Below are positions 1,712-15,026 of a stretch of 23,822 nt of DNA, in pieces. Under the pieces are notes generated by a model. That model ran no database searches. It worked only from the letters and a program-made list of their open reading frames with translations, and had not been told where the DNA came from. The stretch comes from a virus (lineage: Duplodnaviria; Heunggongvirae; Uroviricota; Caudoviricetes): positions 1-23,822 of IMG/VR virus record IMGVR_UViG_2671180283_000029. One strand, written 5' to 3'. Position numbers and translations under genes: made by a program. Within the stretch, counting starts at the first letter, position 1; every line of letters begins with the position of its first letter.

Positions 1712-2422
1712 ATGACAAACGATTTATATATTAACGGCAGAAAGATTGATAGCTTCGGGGACTGGTCACCACAGACTGAACATCCAGCTATCGCTATTCA
1801 GCGTAAAGAACACGATGAAAGAATTAAGCTTGAGCAAGAAATCCGAATGTCACCAAAGGAAATTACCTTTGTGGCTCCTGAGCCTCAAGAAATGCCTGAT
1901 ATCTGCAAAAGTGAAGCACTATTTAATCTTGAGCGTGAATATTACCCACAGTTAAAAGAACAGCGCCTTAGACTAGATGACGCTTACAGCAAAGTTACCC
2001 TGATGCAATCAGCTATTGAGCCGTCAGAATTTGAGATTCAGGATGAATTGTCACAGAAACCATTTGTCTATTACCAATACGAAGACAATGATGGTTTTGG
2101 TATTTATCCAGAAAACATCCCAGCCGCGATTAGTAGTCTTCCTGAGGGACATCGAATTGTGAAGATGGTTAAGGCATCAAGAGGTGCTGGTCAGTTTATT
2201 TACATGACCAATAAGAGCGATGAAGAACTCTGTGAACTTGCCAGGCAGAACATCTTGGCATCACGTAACAAGCAACTTGAAAATGTTAAGTTGTGTCTCT
2301 TAAGAGAGCTTCAGGCTATGAAAGACCTTATTTCTGCATATGAAACGCAGAAGAAGATTGCTATGCAGGCTGATATTGAGCAGTTAGTGAAGATTTCAAC
2401 GAAGTACGCAAAGGTGCTTTAA
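1712..2422 (+). CDS. hypothetical protein (236 aa), acidic with a coiled-coil-like C-terminus
   Basis: ORF with GAGGAAA SD upstream of the ATG; no recognisable motif. Confidence 0.55.
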   Translation: MTNDLYINGRKIDSFGDWSPQTEHPAIAIQRKEHDERIKLEQEIRMSPKEITFVAPEPQEMPDICKSEALFNLEREYYPQLKEQRLRLDDAYSKVTLMQSAIEPSEFEIQDELSQKPFVYYQYEDNDGFGIYPENIPAAISSLPEGHRIVKMVKASRGAGQFIYMTNKSDEELCELARQNILASRNKQLENVKLCLLRELQAMKDLISAYETQKKIAMQADIEQLVKISTKYAKVL

Positions 2423-2445
2423 CTATGAATTAAAAGAGGTGATTA

Positions 2446-2655
2446 ATGTTTGAAGAACGTTTAGAGACTATTCGGTCTGTTTGTGAAAACTTAAAGTTAC
2501 AAGCCAATCCAGCCTTAAGAATTAAAAACAAACGTCAAGTTATCACCTCACACAAACCAAAAACACGCAAGATTCCAAAGTGGTGTATCGACCGTATCCC
2601 TTCTGATGCCCAAATCATAGGTGAAACGGAATTACATTATCTTGTCAGACATTAA
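2446..2655 (+). CDS. hypothetical basic protein (69 aa)
   Basis: ORF with AGAGGTG SD 4 nt upstream of the ATG. Confidence 0.4.
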   Translation: MFEERLETIRSVCENLKLQANPALRIKNKRQVITSHKPKTRKIPKWCIDRIPSDAQIIGETELHYLVRH

Positions 2656-2733
2656 AAAAGAATTGGTTGGGTAAAAATCTACGGGAGAGATTATCGAGTG
2701 ACATCGGTAGTTTCTCCCTTTTTTGTATATGTG

Positions 2734-2797
2734 CTACGTGAAATCTGTAAAGCTAATACCCACACTGAATAATAGAATTTACGTAGCTCACGCTTAA
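2734..2797. repeat. conserved 64-bp intergenic element, copy A (CTACGTGAA-N11-TAATACCCACAC-N15-ACGTAGCTCACGCTTAA)
   Basis: Three conserved blocks with identical 11- and 15-nt spacings, matched by copy B at 4979-5042; lies directly upstream of the 2816 gene. Confidence 0.6.
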
Positions 2798-2815
2798 AGA
2801 GGTGAAATATGAACA

Positions 2816-4966
2816 ATGGCACAGTTTAAAGTTGATGATTTTCTGATTGAGTTAAGTTTTAACTCTCAGAAAGTTTTAAAAGGCTTGGAAAAAGCCGAGA
2901 AACAAACGATGCAAATCGCATCAAGAATTGAGAAACGACTAAATAAGGCATTCAGAGTTAACCCTACGCCTTTAAATGATTCTCTCAAACTAATGGAAAA
3001 GAATGTCGATAAAACTGTTTCCAAGATTGAGCAGCGTCTTAAAAACACTAGAGCGTTTAAGATTAAAACGGAAATTGATGACACTTTAAAGCCACTTAGA
3101 CAACCAAGACAGCCACGAATTAGCGGCAACAGAGCAATCACAGCGGCTTACTCAGCTAATATGTCTAAGCTAAAAGGCTTTGACCCTATTTTGCAGAAAT
3201 ACATCAAATCTCAGTTTTACGGGCTATCTGCTAAAGCTGGGTCAATGGATTCTTCAAAATTCAATGAGAAGCTGACTCAGTTAAATGCTTCAGTCAGAGA
3301 AGCAATTGCTAAAGCTAAAGGTCATACATCCACCAGCATTAACAATACAAGCGACGCATTTAATAATCTTGCAAGCAATGCAATCAAGTTATCTGGTGCA
3401 TTTTACTCTGTGATGGGTGCTCTTAACGCTTACAAGGCCATCATGAATGCAGGTCTTAAACGAGATTCCGCACAGAGAGCCGCTAAGTTTGTACTTGGTG
3501 ATAAAGCATCTGAGGCTGAAACATTTATCAGGGGACTGGCTGACAAGACAGGTCTTAATATCTCTGAAGGGCTATCAAGCTACGCTAAGTTTGCAGCAGG
3601 TGCTCAGGGTTCTATGTCACAGGAACAGACACAGGAGCTATTTGGTAATGCAACGGCTATGAGTCGCTTAATGGGGCTTTCTAACGATGAGCTAAACGGC
3701 ATTTTGAAAGCATTTGAGCAGATGGCTTCTAAGGGCAAGATTCAGGCTGAAGAGCTTCGTGGGCAGTTAGGTGACCGTATGGCAGGGGCATTTAAGCTAT
3801 TCGCTGAAGCATTGGGTATGACTGCTACAGAGCTTGATAAAGCGATGAAAGACGGGAAGATTTTAAGTAGTGATACTCTCCCTAAAGTCGCTAAACAGAT
3901 GGGCTTGATGATTGATAAAGCGGGTGGCTGGGCTGAAGTCGCTAAGAGCACTCAGACAGCTTTAGGGAAACTGGCTAACAACTGGGATGATACGATGGTG
4001 AAAATCTTCTCAGGTTCACAGGATGAGTTAAACGGCTTCTTATCCAGCATGAGTAGCTTGCTTAGTGAAATGGGTATGAGTTCTTCTATCGCTGGTGATG
4101 CTATCGGTGGACTTATCGACATGCTTAAAGCTGGTGTAGATGACATCCGTATCTTTAACAATCACCTTGAAGGCTGGATTCTACAGATTAAGAAGACCTA
4201 TTACAGCCTTGATGACACTAAACGAAAACTACTTGATGAAGTCGGTGATGGTTTTATCAATTTTGTCAAAGGTCTTGCTATAGCGTTATCTGCAAAGACG
4301 CTATTCAGTGCTACTACAGGGGTTATGAACCTGACAAGAGCAATCACAACGTTAGGTACAAGAGCTAATCAGGTGGCTGGTCAGGTAGCTACTGGTAAAG
4401 GTGTAGCTGGTGGTGTAGGTAGTGCTCTTGCAATTGGTTATGCTGATGACGGTTATGAAACAGCGTTAGCATTAGCTTCAATGATTCCACAAATCAGAGG
4501 CGTCACTCTTGGTTTATATGCATTGAAGAAAGCACTGGATTTTATGAATCAGGAAGTAGTCAAAAACGCTAATATGCATCCATCTGGGGTAGGTGTGGGT
4601 AGTGACTTTAATCCTGTGTATTCTGGTGACCCTAATAAACCGAATATGATTAACGAAGGATGGGGTAGAATTTTTAGTTCAATGGGTGAATTGTTTAACA
4701 ATGCCACAATGAATATTGCAAGATTCAATCATCCAGAATTAATTACCATGAAACAAGATGCATCATTAACGAGCACTGACATCCAAAATCTAAGAGATGA
4801 AATTAGTGCTTTAAGTAAGCGTATTCAGGAGCCTGTGAAAGTTTCACTTGGTGGTGAAGTTGCCATTAAACCAGATGAAACCAGCTTTATGACCTTTAGC
4901 AGTAATATCTACGACCAATATGCAGAAGCTACGTTATTAAGTTCATCATTCCCAGAAGATGATTGA
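2816..4966 (+). CDS. phage tail tape-measure-like protein (716 aa)
   Basis: Motif GKIQAEELRGQLGDRMAGAFKLFAEALGMTATELDKAMKDGKILSSDTLPKVAKQMG resembles the conserved tape-measure domain; helical N-terminus and Gly/Ala-rich hydrophobic segments (about residues 480-560), typical of TMPs. Confidence 0.7.
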   Translation: MAQFKVDDFLIELSFNSQKVLKGLEKAEKQTMQIASRIEKRLNKAFRVNPTPLNDSLKLMEKNVDKTVSKIEQRLKNTRAFKIKTEIDDTLKPLRQPRQPRISGNRAITAAYSANMSKLKGFDPILQKYIKSQFYGLSAKAGSMDSSKFNEKLTQLNASVREAIAKAKGHTSTSINNTSDAFNNLASNAIKLSGAFYSVMGALNAYKAIMNAGLKRDSAQRAAKFVLGDKASEAETFIRGLADKTGLNISEGLSSYAKFAAGAQGSMSQEQTQELFGNATAMSRLMGLSNDELNGILKAFEQMASKGKIQAEELRGQLGDRMAGAFKLFAEALGMTATELDKAMKDGKILSSDTLPKVAKQMGLMIDKAGGWAEVAKSTQTALGKLANNWDDTMVKIFSGSQDELNGFLSSMSSLLSEMGMSSSIAGDAIGGLIDMLKAGVDDIRIFNNHLEGWILQIKKTYYSLDDTKRKLLDEVGDGFINFVKGLAIALSAKTLFSATTGVMNLTRAITTLGTRANQVAGQVATGKGVAGGVGSALAIGYADDGYETALALASMIPQIRGVTLGLYALKKALDFMNQEVVKNANMHPSGVGVGSDFNPVYSGDPNKPNMINEGWGRIFSSMGELFNNATMNIARFNHPELITMKQDASLTSTDIQNLRDEISALSKRIQEPVKVSLGGEVAIKPDETSFMTFSSNIYDQYAEATLLSSSFPEDD

Positions 4967-4978
4967 TTTAACGGTGTT

Positions 4979-5042
4979 CTACGTGAATAAAGCAAAGTTA
5001 ATACCCACACCAAAAATTATTTTTCACGTAGCTCACGCTTAA
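4979..5042. repeat. conserved 64-bp intergenic element, copy B
   Basis: Same three blocks and same spacings as copy A; lies between the TMP-like gene stop and the 5123 gene. Confidence 0.6.
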
Positions 5043-5122
5043 CAGAGAAAATACATACATATCAAAGGTTTGGTTAAAAATGATTAAAATACACTAAGCC
5101 TTTGAAATCAAAGGAGAATTTA

Positions 5123-5911
5123 ATGATTTACTCTAATCAGATTCGTTACAGTGGCAAAGATGGCATCTATTTCCACTTAAGAGATAATGTAGATGCCTTC
5201 TTAACCTTATCAGCAACTGAGAACATGGAATTTGATAGCCCTATGCAGGTGACTACACAGAATATGCAATCGGGGCAAACCGTCACAGATAATGTGCAAA
5301 GAGCACCCAGAACAATCACTATTAGTGGTGTCGTTGTAGTTGGCTATGAAGGGAGCTTATTATTAACTCGTCAGGGTCAATTAGTAGAAAACTTCATCGA
5401 CACTCTGGAAAACTGGCGTGACCAGAAGCAAATTATTTCGGTCATCTGTAAAGATGGAATTAAAATTGATGATTCCATTATTACGAGTTTTAAAGCCTCT
5501 AAAGATGTTGGAATTTCAAATGGTCTAAGAATCCAGCTAACTTTTCAGGAAATTAACTTTAAAGCGATTGTAGGACAAACTGATATTTCAGCAGCAACTG
5601 GAAAGACCGCTACTACAAATGACGGTGGTGTGACCAGTAAGAAGAATGCAGGTAACGTGACCACTGAACGCAATAACGCGCCTATGCTATCGTGCAAAGA
5701 ATTAATGAATATTAGCGATGTATCCGGTTACGCTCCAGCTATCAGAAATGATATTCTCGATGCTCAGATTAAATGTAATAAGGCTTGGAAGCTGGACTAT
5801 TCAGACTTAACAGAAGCTGAAAAAACCAACGTCACCAATGCTAACAGTAACGCTGGTCGGGTAGCTTCAAAGCTTAAAAAGTACTCAGTGAATCCTAACA
5901 AAAAATACTAA
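5123..5911 (+). CDS. hypothetical protein (262 aa); position after the TMP-like gene suggests a tail-associated role, unproven
   Basis: ATG at 5123 with AAGGAG SD (track start at 5102 lacks an SD); Thr/Asn/Gly-rich C-terminal half; 3' end overlaps the convergent recombinase gene by 4 nt. Confidence 0.5.
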
Positions 5912-7431
5912 ATCTCTACTACATCAACATCTATTAAACCCCTCTCAGTGACTTCAGAAAGCGACTGTATAGCCTCTGTAACGTCCTCTGAGGGGTTTTC
6001 TGTTATTGATAGGGTGATTGACTTACTATTGTGAAAAGTCACTTTACAGCGACGTTTAGCAGTATTTAAAACGACCTCTTTAACAGCACTTTTGATTATC
6101 AGTTGTGCTTCAATCCTTCCCGCCTTTGTAGTCAAGTCACAATCGGACAAACAACCCACATCAATAGATTTAAGGCGTTGTGTCTCCTTCTCGATATCAG
6201 CATCAACCTGTGATAGCTCACCTTTTAACTGTTTTAGTTTGCTGGTAATAGCTGACAAATCTTCAATTTCAAGTGATAGCTGTACCAGCTTTTCAATATT
6301 GCTTGAGATGTGTTCACGGTGTAGCCTCAACATATCTATGGTATTCGTCGTATCGCTATCAAATCGGTCAAGACGAGATAGCAGAGTAAGCAATGTACCA
6401 TCGGTTTGCTTACGTGAAAGTCCTTTAGCACTACAACGGTTTTCATTACGAAGAGGACAACGATAAATCCCGCTTCTTGTATCGCTAAAGCCTGTGATAA
6501 TCAGAGCATGACCACATTCAGAACAACGGATAACACCTTTGAAAAGATTCACAGCCATTGGCTTATCTGAAGCAGGTTTTCTACCGTAACGAGCATATGA
6601 TAGTTGCTGGACTTTGTAGAATGTTGTTTCATCTATAATTGCAGGATAATAATCAGCTATCTCTTCACAGCCTTTAGGTGTGAAGTAACCAATTACAGAG
6701 CGATTTTTCAGAAGGTCTTGTACTGAGGTTTGACCAAATGAACCCGCTTTATATTGGTTAAGCGTCTGGTGACCTTCATCATTAAGAGTCCTGACAATCT
6801 CCCAGATAGACTTACCCTCTAACCGTAGCTGAAAGCACCTCTTCACAGTTTCTACCTTCTCAGGTATCACAGAGAAGCTTTTACGGTCATCATTAAGCTT
6901 AAGCCATGCAGGACAACGTTTAGAAATCTTGATACCTTCAGAGATGAGTTCTTTTTTACGGTTCCATGCAGCTTGTATACGCTCAGACTTCCTCAAACTC
7001 TCCTCATGCGACCGCTGCATTATCAGAATGCTTTTAATCAGAGCTAACGGGTCTTTAAGAGATTCTCGTGTGTAATGTTCACCATCGGACAAGGTGACTA
7101 CATCTACACCAGAGCGAAGAATGTTTCGTAATAGCTCACTTGCTCGGTCTACGTTCTGGCGTGACAAACGGTCAAGAGATTCTATCAAGAGCGTATCACC
7201 AGCTTTAACAAGCCCTTTCTCGATAGCGGTTAAGAAGTCACCTAAGCCACCTTTCAAGTGCTTACCAGTGAATCCACTCACACCTAAATCACGGAAGGAT
7301 AAATCTTGGTCAAGGTAGTACTCAGGATGAGCCTTAAGCCAATCAGTGACCATCTTAGATTGTCGGCGTAATGAATCACCTCGGGATTGCTTCTCAGATG
7401 AAAACCTGATGTAAGAAATGGCACGTTTCAT
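5908..7431 (-). CDS. large serine recombinase (serine integrase), 507 aa
   Basis: N-terminal resolvase-type catalytic domain (YIRFSSEKQ with candidate nucleophilic Ser, [11 protein letters not shown]), then recombinase domain, Cys-rich zinc-ribbon-like segment (CSECGH...[11 protein letters not shown]) and C-terminal coiled coil; GAGGTG SD; sits at the element edge next to the junction. Confidence 0.9.
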
Positions 7432-7483
7432 TGTTCACCTCAAAACTGATGCCTAGATTGTATCGCTTTAGGTGGTGTATTTA

Positions 7484-7921
7484 AACGTGTCTAATAAAAA
7501 TCACCCGATTAACGCCGCGCTGATGTAAACCGCGATTAAGCGTTTGTTCCTCTTCCCCTTTGGCGAAAAACTGTGGATGGCGGACTTCCACACCATAATT
7601 AAATTCGCCAGGGAGAGAATCGAGAAAATGCCAAAGCGCAGGCAGCTCCCGTGGGCCGAATGTGGCAGGCAGTTGCAGCCAGTATTGCCCAATGCGCGGA
7701 GCCAACGGTGACATGCGGGTCAAAAATTCAGTCACTAAATCATCGCAATGTCGTAATGCTGCCTGATGCGAAATGGTCGCCGGAAACTTAAAACAGAAGC
7801 GGAAGTCATCTGTGGTCTGTTCACGCCAGCGCAGGACAACCTCGGGTTTCGGCAGGGCGTAAAGCGTGGTGTTGCCCTCCACGCAGTTAACATGACGGGT
7901 ATTAAGGATTAACTTACTGAT
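7484..7921 (-). pseudogene. yecE: internal fragment of a chromosomal DUF72-family gene (yecE-like), truncated at both ends
   Basis: Reading frame open from 7921 to 7484 with no credible start (track start is GTG); the protein matches my recollection of E. coli YecE across its central ~130 residues, with the C-terminal tail (IFIRHV) diverging near 7500 and the 5' end running into the integrase 3' end; GC visibly higher than the left element. Identity is from memory, not a search. Confidence 0.55.
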
Positions 7922-9222
7922 TTTAATAAGCCTCTGGTGTCACTTTGGTGACTATGGGGCATCATTGGGACATAATCTGTCAGCTTCTGATTCAGCATTG
8001 CGATCTGTTCTGCATTGCTGTCAGTCATCCATGCTCCGTATACATTGAATACCATCTGGGCACTTGCATGGCCCATCTGGCTGGCAATGAAGCTTGGGTT
8101 TGCTCCGGCAGATAATGACCAGCACGCATAAGTGTGTCGTGACTGGTATGCCTTTCGATGCCTGATCCCTGCACGCTTAATGGCTGTTTCCCATGAGTCA
8201 CCTACAGAATCGACTTTGTAGACAAAACCTACCTGTTCGCTTTTTCTAACCACTTGAGGGTTAAACACGAAAGTACATTCATGGTTCACTGAACGTCCAT
8301 ATTCACGTAGTTGCACCTTGATGTTGTACTGCTTACCCAGTCTTGTCATTTCAGCCTGATTTTTCAGGACACTGATAGCGGGCTGGATAAGGTGCACAAC
8401 CCTGTTTGTGCTTGCTTCAGTTTTCGGTAGAGTGAACTCACCAAGTTTCGTATAATTGCGCCTGATGGTAATTGTTCCTGCCTTCAGATCGATATCTTCC
8501 CAGGCCAGGGAGACCAGTTCACCGTGACGCATTCCTGTGTACACAGCCAATGACCACAGGTTTTTCGTCTGCTGATGTCGGCAAGCATCTATCAGGCGAA
8601 TAAATTCGTCACGAGTTAGCGGATCTGGCTCTGCCCTGGCTCTTTTAAGAGGCTTAATTCCCTGGAAGGGATTTGCTTCTAAGTAACCGTGATCTGCAGC
8701 AAACTGAAACATTCCAGCGATTGTCGTCATGTAATAATTTACAGTAACGACGCTCCGTCCTTTTGCTGCTGCTTTGTTTTTCGTTGAATTCTGATACCCG
8801 GTCAGCAAATCTTTCCTGATATACAGCAATTCCTCTTTGGTTACCGATGACACCAGTCTACTGCCTCCAATTTTCGGAACCATCGTTCTTGCAACGGATT
8901 CATAGCGATTGAATGCATTTGCAGAGATTTCCATTCGTTTCAGATCCAGCCACTTTTCTTCAAGTTTCTTCACCGTAATTTCTTTTTTACTTACCCCAAA
9001 AGCCTGAAGGTTGGGGGAGTCAGGGAACTGTGCAGCATAATCAAAGCTTCCTGTGCGGATGGCAAAACATACTGATGTCCGCAGTTCCCCGGCGATCTTC
9101 CTGTTCTTGGCAGTGTCAGGGACACCAAGATTTTCCCTGACACGTTTACCTTTAAAATTAAACCAGATGCGTAATGTGCCGCCGTGGTTTTCGACGCCTG
9201 TTGGATATTTGACTTTATCCAT
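7909..9222 (-). CDS. int: phage tyrosine integrase (437 aa)
   Basis: C-terminal catalytic region with Arg/His/Tyr pattern (GMRHGELVSL, SRHTYACW, MGHAS, VYGAW); GGAGG SD; adjacent to the chromosomal gene remnant and followed by an excisionase-like gene. Confidence 0.9.
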   Translation of the reverse strand: MDKVKYPTGVENHGGTLRIWFNFKGKRVRENLGVPDTAKNRKIAGELRTSVCFAIRTGSFDYAAQFPDSPNLQAFGVSKKEITVKKLEEKWLDLKRMEISANAFNRYESVARTMVPKIGGSRLVSSVTKEELLYIRKDLLTGYQNSTKNKAAAKGRSVVTVNYYMTTIAGMFQFAADHGYLEANPFQGIKPLKRARAEPDPLTRDEFIRLIDACRHQQTKNLWSLAVYTGMRHGELVSLAWEDIDLKAGTITIRRNYTKLGEFTLPKTEASTNRVVHLIQPAISVLKNQAEMTRLGKQYNIKVQLREYGRSVNHECTFVFNPQVVRKSEQVGFVYKVDSVGDSWETAIKRAGIRHRKAYQSRHTYACWSLSAGANPSFIASQMGHASAQMVFNVYGAWMTDSNAEQIAMLNQKLTDYVPMMPHSHQSDTRGLLKSVS

Positions 9223-9946: not shown

Positions 9947-10318
9947 TCAGAGCCGTATGTTTGTAGCGGGTTCAATACTGATAATTTCTGCTGAGATAAG
10001 CATCCCGGCAAGCCAGAGCTCTCCGGACAGATCTTCATCCTGGCATGTCAGTTCGCCAATATTAATGGTGGCCATGATATCTGTTTCCCCTGTACGCTCA
10101 TCCTCGACTTCTTCATAAGGCAGCGTTGCGTACAGGCTTTCAATAGCGCAACTGATAACATCGAGTCCGGTCAGGTTGCCACCGACAGTGACTTCGAATG
10201 TTTCGCGGTATTCCCATTGCCCGAAAGTTAATCGAACGGTTTGTTTCGCCATGCGTCCGCATGACGTCAGATTTGGGTCATAGTTCATTATTTGCGGTTG
10301 AGTATTATGAGTGTTCAT
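9947..10318 (-). CDS. hypothetical phage protein (123 aa), acidic
   Basis: ORF in the leftward early operon; no recognisable motif. Confidence 0.5.
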   Translation of the reverse strand: MNTHNTQPQIMNYDPNLTSCGRMAKQTVRLTFGQWEYRETFEVTVGGNLTGLDVISCAIESLYATLPYEEVEDERTGETDIMATINIGELTCQDEDLSGELWLAGMLISAEIISIEPATNIRL

Positions 10319-10359
10319 CTGCTTTTCCCTTAGCCCGACGGCCTGCCGGGCATATTAAG

Positions 10360-11187
10360 TTATTTAACCTGGATAAATGGTGTATTGGCACCGCTGGTCA
10401 TGTATTGCGGCAGCGTGCCATTCCATTTATTGATGGCTTCCAGCTCCATAACACCGGGGTTCTGACGCAGAGCTTCACCGCGTAAACGAATAGCATCGGC
10501 TTCAGCCTGGGCTTTTGTGCGAATCGCATCAGCCTGTCCGGCAGCTTCCGCGCGCAACATGTTGGCTTCCGCTTCGCGCTGTTTTACTTCCTGCTCGCGT
10601 TGCAGAGTTTTCTGGTTCGCCGTGACTTTGGCATTAATGCTGTCGATAACAGTAGGCGGGTACTCCGGCTTACCCACATATGAGAGGCTTATTACCTGAA
10701 TACCGATGGGCGTCATTTCTTCCTGAATGTCTTTAAGAGCTGCATCCAGCAGCTCAGACTTGCCGCCGTCGATAAATTTGTCGGTGGTCATTTTGCTGGC
10801 CAGTCGGTTGAGTGCGTCGGCTATCTTCTGGCGCAGGTCGGTGTCGGTAATGTCGTCCACGCCTTTGCGGTAGGTCTGAAAGACTGTGGTAACTTTGGAT
10901 GGATCAACCTTGTAGGCTACTCCGATGTGGTAACCAATGGTTGTTCCATCGCTCATCTGGAAACTGAATGGATCATCGTAGGTCTTCATCTGCTTAAAGG
11001 TCGGGAAGATATAAACTTCAGTGTTCCAGCCTGTCCAGTAGCGACCAACACCGACCACTTCACCGACGCCTTTGTCGTCGCCAAGTTTGTTGACTTTGAT
11101 GCCCACATTACCAGGCTCAACACGATCACAACCGACAAGGCCAATGGCAGGCAGAACAATGGCTAAAGAAAAAATAATTTTTTTCAT
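10360..11187 (-). CDS. SPFH/band-7 (prohibitin/stomatin-like) domain lipoprotein, 275 aa
   Basis: Signal peptide with lipobox LVGC (MKKIIFSLAIVLPAIGLVGC); band-7-like core; C-terminal Ala/Glu/Arg/Gln-rich coiled coil typical of SPFH oligomerisation tails; AAGGA SD; ATGA overlap with the upstream small gene. Confidence 0.75.
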   Translation of the reverse strand: MKKIIFSLAIVLPAIGLVGCDRVEPGNVGIKVNKLGDDKGVGEVVGVGRYWTGWNTEVYIFPTFKQMKTYDDPFSFQMSDGTTIGYHIGVAYKVDPSKVTTVFQTYRKGVDDITDTDLRQKIADALNRLASKMTTDKFIDGGKSELLDAALKDIQEEMTPIGIQVISLSYVGKPEYPPTVIDSINAKVTANQKTLQREQEVKQREAEANMLRAEAAGQADAIRTKAQAEADAIRLRGEALRQNPGVMELEAINKWNGTLPQYMTSGANTPFIQVK

Positions 11188-11372
11188 CTTTTATCCTTAG
11201 TGAAAGAAAGCCCCTTATAAATGGTATAAATGCATGGCGGGGTTAGAAACGTCAGTGCAAAGCCAGAAATCACCGCTACCGTATCCTTCATTGATATCAG
11301 AAACGGGACGAGCAATCCGTAAATACATGCGATAATTGCCAGTGATATAACTATTCTGAAATAAATATTCAT
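11184..11372 (-). CDS. small membrane protein (62 aa, two predicted TM helices) coupled to the SPFH lipoprotein
   Basis: Two hydrophobic stretches (IVISLAIIACIYGLLVPFLI and AVISGFALTFLTPPCIYTI); AGGAGG SD; its stop overlaps the lipoprotein ATG. Confidence 0.55.
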   Translation of the reverse strand: MNIYFRIVISLAIIACIYGLLVPFLISMKDTVAVISGFALTFLTPPCIYTIYKGLSFTKDKR

Positions 11373-11432
11373 GGTCCTCCTGCTGTATTCGGCTTGCCTT
11401 ATTTAATTGCGTCATGGTTAATTTCGTTTACG

Positions 11433-11825
11433 TCAGAATGGTTTTGTTGCCATCAGTTCGTAATATCCGGCGCTCCATGTGTCATATTTTCTGAACCATT
11501 TTTCTGTATACTGTTTCCTGGCGATGAGTCTGCGCAGTCGTCTGATTGTTCGCTGGTGTGCGCGGGTGTACTCTGTGGTTGATTCTCCACGTTTCCATAT
11601 CTCATTCCCGTTGAAGATAAAACGCTTGTCAGGATGGCGTTGTCGGAATCCTGAACGTTCAAAAGCGCGGGTGGTCATAAAGAATGCCAGGTAACGAATT
11701 GCCGTTTTTCGAGTGAGGCATTTTTTTGTTCTTCCGTGGCGTGTTACAAAAAATAACGGGCCGACGGGTGTATCATGTTTCTGTAATGCCTGGTCAATGG
11801 CGCTGGCGGTGCGGTTGTCGATCAT
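11433..11825 (-). CDS. hypothetical basic protein (130 aa)
   Basis: ORF in the coupled leftward operon; Arg/Lys-rich; start overlaps the upstream gene stop. Confidence 0.5.
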   Translation of the reverse strand: MIDNRTASAIDQALQKHDTPVGPLFFVTRHGRTKKCLTRKTAIRYLAFFMTTRAFERSGFRQRHPDKRFIFNGNEIWKRGESTTEYTRAHQRTIRRLRRLIARKQYTEKWFRKYDTWSAGYYELMATKPF

Positions 11826-12040
11826 TTCTTTATTTCTCCTGAATAACGTTCATGACTCATTACTTCCCAGTTCCGGCCGTCGTCTTTCGATAACAGCCGC
11901 CAGCGACGGTTAACCTTCAGACTGAGACATCCGTTGCGCTGTATCCGATGCGGGAATATACGTCGGCATCTGTACCGCCGCAGGACCAGCAACGCCTGCT
12001 GGTGGACCCACTCAGGAATTCGCGTTGCTGTTAATGTCAC
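11822..12040 (-). CDS. hypothetical protein (72 aa)
   Basis: GTG start at 12040 with AGGAGG SD 6 nt upstream; ATGA-type junction with the downstream gene. Confidence 0.4.
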   Translation of the reverse strand: MTLTATRIPEWVHQQALLVLRRYRCRRIFPHRIQRNGCLSLKVNRRWRLLSKDDGRNWEVMSHERYSGEIKK

Positions 12041-12227
12041 TGGTTTCCTCCTGAGCAGGTGCTGTTATCTGATACCCCGCTCTTTCTGCCAGCCATATGA
12101 ATGTATCCATGCTGGCAATCAGCTCTCCATCGCGGACTTTGCAGACATCTGTTACCTGGCCATTTTCAATTGTCATAACGATCTGCACTTTTTCGTGCAC
12201 AACAGATACAGGGGATAAATTAGCCAT
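12012..12227 (-). CDS. hypothetical protein (71 aa)
   Basis: ATG at 12227 with GGAGG SD; overlaps the stop of the upstream gene. Confidence 0.45.
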   Translation of the reverse strand: MANLSPVSVVHEKVQIVMTIENGQVTDVCKVRDGELIASMDTFIWLAERAGYQITAPAQEETSDINSNANS

Positions 12228-14330: not shown

Positions 14331-15026
14331 CTAACCAAATCTGTTTATGTTGAATGGTACTGATGAGATCACTTTAGACTGGATATAAAGCAGAGCTAAC
14401 CCCTCTTTTTCGATGCTCCATGGTTGATAATTGGGGTTATCAGATAACACCATGATTTTGCTTCCAATTTTTTGAAGCCTTTTCACGTAGCATTCTCCAT
14501 CAAAACAAAATGCATAAATACCATCGCCATCAAAATAAGTTACTGTCTTATCAAGAAAAAGAAGGTCGCCAGGTGAGATTGTGGGAGCCATACTGTCTCC
14601 TCTGGCGTTACCTATTTCTATATTTTTGAATGCCCGATTCCCAACAAGACGTCGGGCATATTCAGGATCAAGTTCTATTGAGCGCACTACATCTATCAAG
14701 TCACCACGGACATGAGTTCCATCACCGCAACTAAACTCAACATCAAGGACATTAAACACGACACTATCTGTTCTTGTCTGGTGTTTCTCTTGCGAGGAAA
14801 AGGTTGGTGAGGAGTCTTCACCTAAGAACCAGGATTGTGGATAACCGCTAATCTCTGATAAATGCGCGAGCTTATCACTCCGTGGAAATGTTTTTCCTGT
14901 TGTCCAGTACTGCACTGATTGCGCACTCACACCTAACTTGCGGGCCAGTTGAGCCTGAGTCCATCCTTTTGCTTTCAGCATCGCGGCTATTCGATTTTCC
15001 GTGTTTTTGACGTTCTTCATGACCAA
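14331..15026 (-). CDS. cI: CI-type prophage repressor (HTH_XRE plus S24 LexA-like peptidase), 231 aa
   Basis: N-terminal HTH (KGWTQAQLARKLGVSAQSVQYWTTGKTFP); C-terminal S24 signature with GDSM serine and VKRL lysine; divergent from the cro-like gene. Confidence 0.85.
   Translation of the reverse strand: MVMKNVKNTENRIAAMLKAKGWTQAQLARKLGVSAQSVQYWTTGKTFPRSDKLAHLSEISGYPQSWFLGEDSSPTFSSQEKHQTRTDSVVFNVLDVEFSCGDGTHVRGDLIDVVRSIELDPEYARRLVGNRAFKNIEIGNARGDSMAPTISPGDLLFLDKTVTYFDGDGIYAFCFDGECYVKRLQKIGSKIMVLSDNPNYQPWSIEKEGLALLYIQSKVISSVPFNINRFG

Follow-up and report, generated by a model that had tools for sequence, protein, structure and literature searches.

A conserved phage gene pair encoding an SPFH lipoprotein and a two-transmembrane partner, a putative membrane-scaffold module

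We examined a stretch of 23,822 nucleotides of Caudoviricetes DNA (IMG/VR record IMGVR_UViG_2671180283_000029, positions 1–23,822; hereafter the window), in which two overlapping minus-strand genes encode a 275-residue lipoprotein of the SPFH (Band-7) family and a 62-residue protein with two hydrophobic segments, here called the partner (Table 1). The two genes are kept side by side at nearly all loci that we surveyed, and we consider a self-contained membrane-scaffold module to be the best explanation for them.

The locus and its SPFH lipoprotein

The pair belongs to a yecE prophage, a relative of phage phiP27, and lies within its leftward early operon. A first-pass annotation, made from the sequence alone, had described a small two-transmembrane (two-TM) protein overlapping a 275-residue open reading frame (ORF) by ATGA, and the coordinates, both ORFs and the overlap are confirmed on the minus strand. 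On that strand the order is int (7909–9222), excisionase, a small ORF, DUF4222, DUF5406, the SPFH gene, the partner gene, an ORF matching phrog_1886 and a ParE-like ORF, followed by further ORFs, a helix-turn-helix (HTH) protein and an S24/HTH repressor (14331–15026). A cro-like gene is on the plus strand. This gene order bears out the earlier placement in the early-left operon between xis and the immunity region. Since the pair sits between xis and the repressor, it is inside the leftward early operon and away from the prophage edge. We therefore rejected the idea that the prophage had picked up a host gene at its boundary, which the annotation had named as a refutation; phiP27 and Serratia-type prophages use the same slot, the pair of the latter likewise lying between repressor and integrase.

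Positions 10200–11500 are 100% identical to the Escherichia coli O39:NM F8704-2 prophage that adjoins a yecE (DUF72) fragment. Over 89% of its length this segment is 92% identical to phiP27; its identity to several Stx2a/Stx2d-converting phages is 89%. The host-like GC content claimed earlier applies to the SPFH gene (50.1%) but not to the partner gene (38.1%), against 45.0% for the window.

Table 1. Features of the SPFH–partner locus in the window
Feature	Position	Strand	Description and basis
Two-TM partner gene	11184..11372	(-)	62 aa; predicted N-in/C-in hairpin; ORF list and phrog_1130
SPFH/Band-7 lipoprotein gene	10360..11187	(-)	275 aa; PF01145 and phrog_200 matches
ATGA overlap, partner TGA stop/SPFH ATG start	11184..11187	(-)	Read from sequence
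AGGAGG ribosome-binding site, 4 nt 5' of partner ATG	11376..11381	(-)	Read from sequence; strong
Signal peptide with lipobox LVGC	11128..11187	(-)	Cys20 predicted lipidated, Asp+2, Arg+3; sequence
Band_7/SPFH domain match, residues 22–208	10564..11124	(-)	Pfam; AlphaFold (AF2) secondary structure
Long Ala/Glu/Arg/Gln-rich helix, residues 178–242 (65 residues)	10462..10656	(-)	AF2; equivalent of SPFH-cage wall helix
C-terminal motif I-x-K-W-N-G-x-L-P...P-F-I	10363..10434	(-)	Alignment of 81 homologues
Inter-helix loop motif of partner, P-x-L-I-S-x-x-x-T, residues 23–31	11280..11306	(-)	Alignments; predicted periplasmic

The band-7-like core proposed for the 275-residue protein is upheld by a strong Pfam match (PF01145, E=2.9e-31, 109.3 bits against a cut-off of 23.6). 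The lipoprotein call likewise stands: the protein matches phrog_200, 'lipoprotein' (E=9e-115), and its N-terminus, MKKIIFSLAIVLPAIGLVGC followed by DR, has a basic n-region (MKK), a hydrophobic core and a lipobox, LVGC, ending in Cys20. No second hydrophobic segment was found past the signal peptide, and because the SPFH match begins at residue 22 there is essentially no linker after Cys20. In an AlphaFold model calculated with 38 homologues (mean predicted local distance difference test score, pLDDT, 74), an alpha/beta SPFH body (residues 20–175) is followed by one long helix and a disordered tail. The coiled coil rich in Ala, Glu, Arg and Gln that the annotation had recognized is this single helix, and it aligns with the coiled-coil regions of HflK and prohibitin-2.

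The tail (residues 244–275) has pLDDT <50 and is disordered in the monomer model. Within it, all of the 81 diverse homologues compared have W255 and G257, and 73 of them have a KW(N/D)G-LP motif. The two invariant residues mark the proteins as a distinct subfamily, and we regard the motif as a candidate cap or contact element. The lipobox, scored strictly by the pattern [LVI][ASTVI][GAS]C, is present in 62 of the 81, while about eight carry an uncleaved N-terminal TM helix in its place with the spacing unchanged.

Comparison with proteins of known structure places the phage protein among cage-forming SPFH proteins. The best PDB sequence matches are HflK (E=2e-4) and prohibitin-2, and the top 35 Foldseek matches in the PDB are HflK/C, prohibitin, erlin, stomatin, flotillin and QmcA (E 3e-14 to 5e-8), including HflK/C (7vhq), prohibitin (8rrh) and QmcA–YbbJ (8z5g). 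HflK/HflC (7vhp, 7vhq, 7wi3, 9cz2), the best match in both sequence and fold, share the SPFH body and the long helix, and their body is on the periplasmic face, as is predicted for the phage protein. However, HflK and HflC are two paralogues of 419 and 334 residues with an N-terminal TM helix, whereas the phages have one shorter SPFH gene product with a lipid anchor, a C-terminal KWNG-LP motif of its own and a 62-residue hairpin neighbour. We ruled out that the phage protein is an HflK or HflC orthologue, as it scores far below the cut-offs of both families (TIGR01932, hflC, 26.2 bits against 134.4; TIGR01933, hflK, 23.6 against 159.4). Prohibitin PHB1/PHB2 (8rrh, 9o9z) matches in fold at E ~1e-13, and its coiled coil aligns through prohibitin-2, but it is a eukaryotic mitochondrial heteromer with TM anchors and has neither a lipobox nor a small hairpin partner.

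GenBank labels phiP27 L05, Stx2 phage homologues and others as serine proteases. We rejected this label, since Band_7 is the sole Pfam match above threshold; the lone 'protease' match is a weak one to phrog_11227 (E=3.7e-4) over the coiled coil. The label, which stands in many GenBank records, is thus unsupported. It occurs in several of the phiP27, RCS47 and Stx2a/Stx2d phage records, and in these records the partner gene is unannotated (extract L002, 3304–3492; L004, 4775–5011; H113–H123).

The two-transmembrane partner and its linkage to the SPFH gene

The 62-residue partner, annotated by RefSeq in the prophage as WP_001538855.1, matches phrog_1130, 'membrane protein' (E=3.6e-23), which PHROGs places in the class 'moron, auxiliary metabolic gene and host takeover'. 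It has no Pfam match at E<=0.1, and the 120 homologues listed for it, of 55–134 residues, are 'hypothetical proteins' without a Pfam domain. The first-pass annotation had asked whether the partner is related to NfeD. This was ruled out, given the lack of a Pfam match and a length too short for an OB-fold domain.

We aligned 24 partner homologues, drawn from Enterobacterales, Sutterella, Dyella, Hallella, Dependentiae and Methylumidiphilus and from the N-termini of fusion proteins. All 24 have Pro23 and Gly37, and 23 of them have Ser27; the three positions lie in or adjoin the inter-helix loop motif, written more fully as P-x-L-I-S-A-x-S-T. Summed over the alignment, the charges are +38/-2 at the N-terminus, +9/-12 in the loop and +74/-25 in the C-terminal tail. 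These charges fit the positive-inside rule, which predicts that both ends of the partner are cytoplasmic and that the conserved loop is periplasmic.

The linkage of the two genes is far stronger than could be seen from a single sequence, where their conservation as a pair had been put forward as a check. We scanned genomes with a profile built from a 14-sequence alignment and took, from one genome per species, the loci whose SPFH protein is at least 39% identical to ours. The partner hidden Markov model placed the partner directly upstream, on the same strand, at 57 of 58 loci; in 55 of these 57 the genes overlap or are no more than 40 nt apart, and in the other two they are split by the insertion sequence IS1. 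The partner is likewise present at 79 of 80 IMG/VR loci. In a reciprocal test with three partner clusters kept out of the seed set, the next gene downstream is a Band_7 gene in all 12 places. The length of the start/stop overlap varies: phiP27 and P88 have the 4 nt seen here, N4 has 8 nt and RCS47 has 20 nt.

The two split loci belong to Shigella flexneri SFBU1023 and E. coli ECMA0423 (extracts L086 and L087, ~2230–3000). Here IS1, recognized by InsA-like ORFs on the opposite strand, sits exactly between the pair genes, where it alters the last residues of the partner and uncouples the pair.

Natural fusions provide a second line of evidence. Among the best 150 cluster representatives, about 20 join both proteins in one chain of 320–390 residues, which runs from the partner hairpin through a basic linker and a third hydrophobic segment, usually with a lipobox, to the SPFH domain. 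The fusions argue for a 1:1 functional partnership, and their order would place the SPFH body outside the cytoplasm. As judged from these comparisons of gene arrangement, functional coupling of the SPFH lipoprotein to the two-TM protein is supported.

QmcA, the SPFH protein of the QmcA–YbbJ complex, faces the cytoplasm. The phage pair resembles this and other SPFH–NfeD operons (QmcA–YbbJ, 8z5g; stomatin–NfeD) in that an SPFH gene is transcribed together with the gene of a small membrane protein and a 1:1 partnership is implied; it differs in that the partner lacks an NfeD/OB-fold domain and that the SPFH protein is predicted to be periplasmic. A two-component spanin (Rz/Rz1) was also considered and rejected: the inner-membrane protein has no periplasmic domain, the lipoprotein is a 275-residue SPFH protein, and the pair is in the early-left operon. 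Phage N4 has separate spanins, gp60 and gp60a (PMC12642591).

Distribution in phages and cells, and surroundings in the window

Homologues of the SPFH protein were found by tblastn in 413 phage records, many of them of strictly lytic phages. The lytic carriers include N4 and N4-like phages, rV5-like phages (4MG), LUZ24-like Pseudomonas phages, the FelixO1-like phiEa21-4 and phiCbK, and crAss-like and Lak phages are also among the carriers. Virus-encoded SPFH proteins are structurally widespread.

The pair itself is found in phiP27, P88, RCS47, N4, 4MG and phi1026b. In the lambdoid phiP27 it is L05 with an unannotated ORF, in the P2-like P88 it is gp11 and gp12, inside an early operon, and in the P1-like RCS47 it lies between upl/plp and ban. 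We take the classical P1 gene map to have tciABC, an envelope-related accessory locus, at the position of the RCS47 pair. In 4MG the partner (gp114) is followed by one small ORF (gp115) and then by the SPFH protein gp116, whose lipoprotein start is C-E-R; in phi1026b the partner match, gp49, is weaker. LUZ24-like, FelixO1-like and phiCbK phages have the SPFH lipoprotein without this partner; other small membrane ORFs stand 5' of the SPFH gene in DL54 and phiCbK, and a soluble one in phiEa21-4. Across the lambdoid, P2-like and P1-like backbones, only the region of the mature SPFH protein stays 86–92% identical in DNA.

A close comparison outside the prophages is N4 gp19–gp20, a true homologous pair of early/middle genes. 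N4 gp20 is 62% identical to the SPFH protein and has the lipobox and the C-terminal motif, while gp19 is a 68-residue protein with two TM helices and the loop motif P-x-M-V-S, and the genes overlap. N4 differs in being strictly lytic, in having Tyr rather than Asp at position +2, and in the setting of the pair, which lies just past the RNA polymerase II (RNAPII) genes and between hairpin terminators. Two GC-rich hairpins with T-runs (2762–2778 and 3838–3860 of locus extract L085) flank gp19–gp20, which looks like a discrete transcription unit in the sequence. The gene upstream of the N4 pair, gp18, is annotated as similar to P22 gp17.

The cassette is also common in bacterial genomes, with 571 of 5426 complete E. 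coli genomes (~10%) carrying it and 241 of its places being on plasmids. In P1-like plasmids (L169–L172, ~4730–5305) a Tad2-like gene (PF11195) lies ~700 nt downstream of the SPFH gene, which suggests that accessory or counter-defence genes accumulate in this slot. A copy of the pair with 81% identity is on a 108-kb contig of Yersinia pestis NCTC5923 (L093), probably the pMT1 plasmid. The phi1026b record cites as similar NP_395392, which we take to be a Y. pestis plasmid protein. On a metagenomic contig the pair stands between BlaI/BlaR1-like genes and ribonucleotide reductase genes.

About 40 Dyella/Rhodanobacteraceae species hold the pair among neighbours that are conserved (~25 species) and have no PHROG matches. 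The arrangement has the look of a vertically inherited cellular copy. In the corresponding loci (L100–L144), conserved flanking ORFs recur in 21–25 and a hemerythrin-domain gene is downstream in nine.

Several other features surround the pair in the window. A GC-rich hairpin, GCCCGGCAGGCCGTCGGGC, lies at 10333–10351 (-), 9 nt past the SPFH stop; it has no T-run and is directly 5' of the ribosome-binding site of the DUF5406 gene. Two genes upstream of the pair, the ParE-like toxin-domain ORF (72 residues, 11822–12040 (-), PF24732, E=4.6e-17) overlaps the phrog_1886 ORF (11433–11825 (-)) by 4 nt and, by 29 nt, a 71-residue ORF (12012–12227 (-)) with weak anti-repressor similarity (phrog_340). 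The ParE-like and 71-residue ORFs may form a toxin–antitoxin-like pair in the early-left operon. To the left of the integrase come a yecE (DUF72) fragment (7481–7882), a large serine recombinase (5908–7431 (-)) and, within 1712–7882, tail genes that include a Dit-like protein (5102–5911) and a tape-measure protein (2816–4966). The region 1712–7882 looks like a second prophage abutting the first at yecE. Strain F8704-2 differs on that side, where yecN and cmoA come after yecE.

Predicted topology and possible role

We propose that the SPFH protein and its partner are in the inner membrane, with the SPFH body flat on the periplasmic face, the side used by HflK/C. The SPFH protein would assemble as a ring or cage that covers a membrane patch, like every solved SPFH protein. 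Its lipid anchor would reach the outer leaflet only; the two-helix partner, made 1:1 with it by translational coupling, would supply a bilayer-spanning fence. The hairpin would thus have a role comparable to that of NfeD (YbbJ) in QmcA–YbbJ, the two partners being unrelated in sequence. The placement is argued from the relatives with an uncleaved N-terminal TM helix, which can sit only in the inner membrane, together with Asp+2 here and Tyr+2 in N4. Under the Asp+2 rule of lipoprotein sorting, Asp at +2 leads to retention in the inner membrane, and the Asp+2 of the SPFH protein suggests that it is retained there.

The resemblance to HflK/C raises the possibility that the phage cage encloses FtsH or competes for it on the periplasmic side of the membrane, altering the turnover of membrane or regulatory proteins. 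In temperate phages cII-like factors might be affected, and in lytic phages the result might be protection of phage proteins or altered turnover of LpxC or SecY. Prohibitins partner m-AAA proteases, FtsH occurs in all bacteria, in keeping with the wide range of hosts of the family, and the FtsH inhibitor of lambda, cIII, is also encoded in a leftward early operon. The nearest relatives in sequence and structure are HflK/HflC and prohibitins, and the predicted topology is that of HflK/C. FtsH is the canonical client of these two families. According to PMC10449902, which cites Qiao 2022, HflK/C encloses FtsH hexamers. However, the phage protein falls below the HflK and HflC cut-offs, and it is a single SPFH gene product, without a heteropair and without the TM helix that contacts FtsH in HflK/C. 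The many strictly lytic carriers also speak against a purpose specific to cII or lysogeny, and the RefSeq annotation of the prophage names no cII or cIII gene. We therefore disfavour a role specific to the lysis–lysogeny decision as the general function, since the strictly lytic N4 and 4MG carry the pair and RefSeq names neither gene here, and we hold an action on FtsH in any form, the main alternative to the reading that we prefer, to be somewhat unlikely.

Our preferred reading, put forward tentatively and as a possibility that falls short of probable, is that, while lytic development proceeds, the pair conditions or protects the infected cell's inner membrane. Membrane would be walled off or stabilized so that secondary insults from outside spare the cell until programmed lysis. 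Such insults would include DNA entry of superinfecting phages, lysis from without and premature permeabilization. Proteins of the T4 Imm/Sp type are early, small, inner-membrane, periplasmic or lipid-anchored exclusion proteins whose site of action is the infected cell's envelope. The pair would have a role of this type, exerted through an SPFH cage. We propose it because the module is early, is at the envelope, is kept by many lytic phages and is also present in phage-free cells, and because the slot that it fills in RCS47 presumably holds another envelope-related locus in classical P1. The resemblance to T4 Imm/Sp, HK97 gp15, P22 SieA, T5 Llp and phi80 Cor is one of architecture and timing; our searches found no similarity of the pair to any of them in sequence or profile, and none is an SPFH protein.

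The timing of expression bears on whether the pair instead serves the lysogen, as a moron expressed in the resting prophage or phage-plasmid that causes superinfection exclusion or abortive infection at the envelope. A consensus scan of the window found no sigma-70-like promoter or intrinsic terminator flanking the pair, by eye the 60-nt gap 5' of the partner gene holds only the ribosome-binding site, and the scan found nothing promoter-like upstream of the pair in RCS47. Since no promoter of its own was found, the pair is probably made from the leftward early transcript, which would follow induction or infection rather than the quiescent lysogenic state, and for the same reason envelope-level exclusion is probably more likely in lytic growth than in a lysogen. 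The lambdoid and P2-like pairs are, moreover, inside operons that are normally repressed in lysogens, and the abundance of the family in lytic phages points to a core function independent of lysogeny. Defence islands are usually patchy, whereas the Dyella neighbours are conserved. A lysogen-protecting moron would agree with the PHROGs class of the partner, with the movement of the cassette between unrelated lambdoid, P2-like and P1-like backbones, with its frequency in E. coli genomes and on plasmids, and with the P1-like plasmids, where a ~200-nt unannotated stretch is 5' of the pair and the Tad2-like gene is nearby. A Pasteurella prophage SPFH protein was, furthermore, detected in the whole-cell protein of a prophage-bearing strain (PMC9872710). 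Taken together, we judge this explanation to be quite unlikely.

Protection of the inner membrane in lytic growth can be stated in a bolder form, in which a gp19–gp20-type pair is a general phage membrane-cage device that, early in infection, seals or walls off the inner membrane against incoming phage DNA. The pair would be the superinfection-exclusion system of N4, feeding its lysis inhibition, and horizontal transfer would have carried the module to prophages of the lambdoid, P2-like and P1-like kinds, Stx-converting phages among them. N4 is described as lacking a characterized superinfection-exclusion system (PMC12642591). We consider this bolder form unlikely as a whole.

A number of points weigh against inner-membrane protection. 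We infer cage assembly and contact with the partner from homology, gene coupling and fusions only. With Arg at +3, the Asp+2 signal may be less effective in retaining the protein. A literature search on the effect of residue +3 on Lol avoidance found nothing, and C-E-Y in five of 35 close relatives, with C-E-R in 4MG, makes the sorting between inner and outer membrane uncertain. The promoter scan was crude, and a weak or non-sigma-70 promoter could escape it. Searches with PADLOC-DB v2 defence profiles gave no match at E<=0.1 for the pair or for six neighbouring proteins, which also tells against the moron. Superinfection-exclusion proteins are usually confined to one phage lineage, and this family is very broad. 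Our full-text literature searches found no functional study of, or experiment on, the phage SPFH lipoprotein family. Finally, the rapid-lysis mutations of N4 described in a 2025 preprint (PMC12642591) fall outside gp19 and gp20, and a possibly related Pasteurella prophage SPFH protein is reported in outer-membrane vesicles as well as in whole-cell protein (PMC9872710).

The Pasteurella protein also underlies a different view of the lipoprotein, as a lysogenic-conversion or virulence factor that reaches the outer membrane or vesicles by export and affects the animal host, for instance through agonism of TLR1/2. PM0222 of Pasteurella multocida, an HflK/C-like SPFH protein of a prophage, is reported to be found in outer-membrane vesicles and to activate TLR1/2 signalling, and its deletion to attenuate virulence (PMC9872710). 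Our prophage, in turn, is related to the Stx-converting phiP27 and Stx2a phages. However, PM0222 (OAZ06802.1) is only a possible homologue of the phage SPFH subfamily, and a role in an animal host cannot explain lytic phages of environmental and plant bacteria or soil Dyella. The obligate inner-membrane partner and the TM-anchored variants point to the inner membrane, and we regard a virulence function as highly improbable.

Protection of the inner membrane thus remains the reading that we carry forward for a family that is catalogued but unstudied. Published genome notes have touched on it: one calls the presence of SPFH in phages unexplained (PMC13239085) and another speculates on an Hfl link (PMC10269572). 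As far as our searches reach, earlier work appears to describe neither the two-gene module, whose hairpin partner is not NfeD, nor its natural fusions, nor the correspondence to N4 gp19–gp20. SPFH cages such as those of HflK/C, prohibitin, stomatin, flotillin and erlin have recent cryo-EM structures, and their contents and working are often unclear. The phage pair is a minimal viral version of such a cage, with one lipid-anchored subunit and a hairpin of about 60 residues, and the family is spread over more than 400 sequenced phages. Its presence in the genetically tractable N4 opens cage function, cage contents and the benefit to the phage to test. If the pair does block DNA entry or regulate FtsH, it would add a new class to the known phage functions of host takeover or exclusion.

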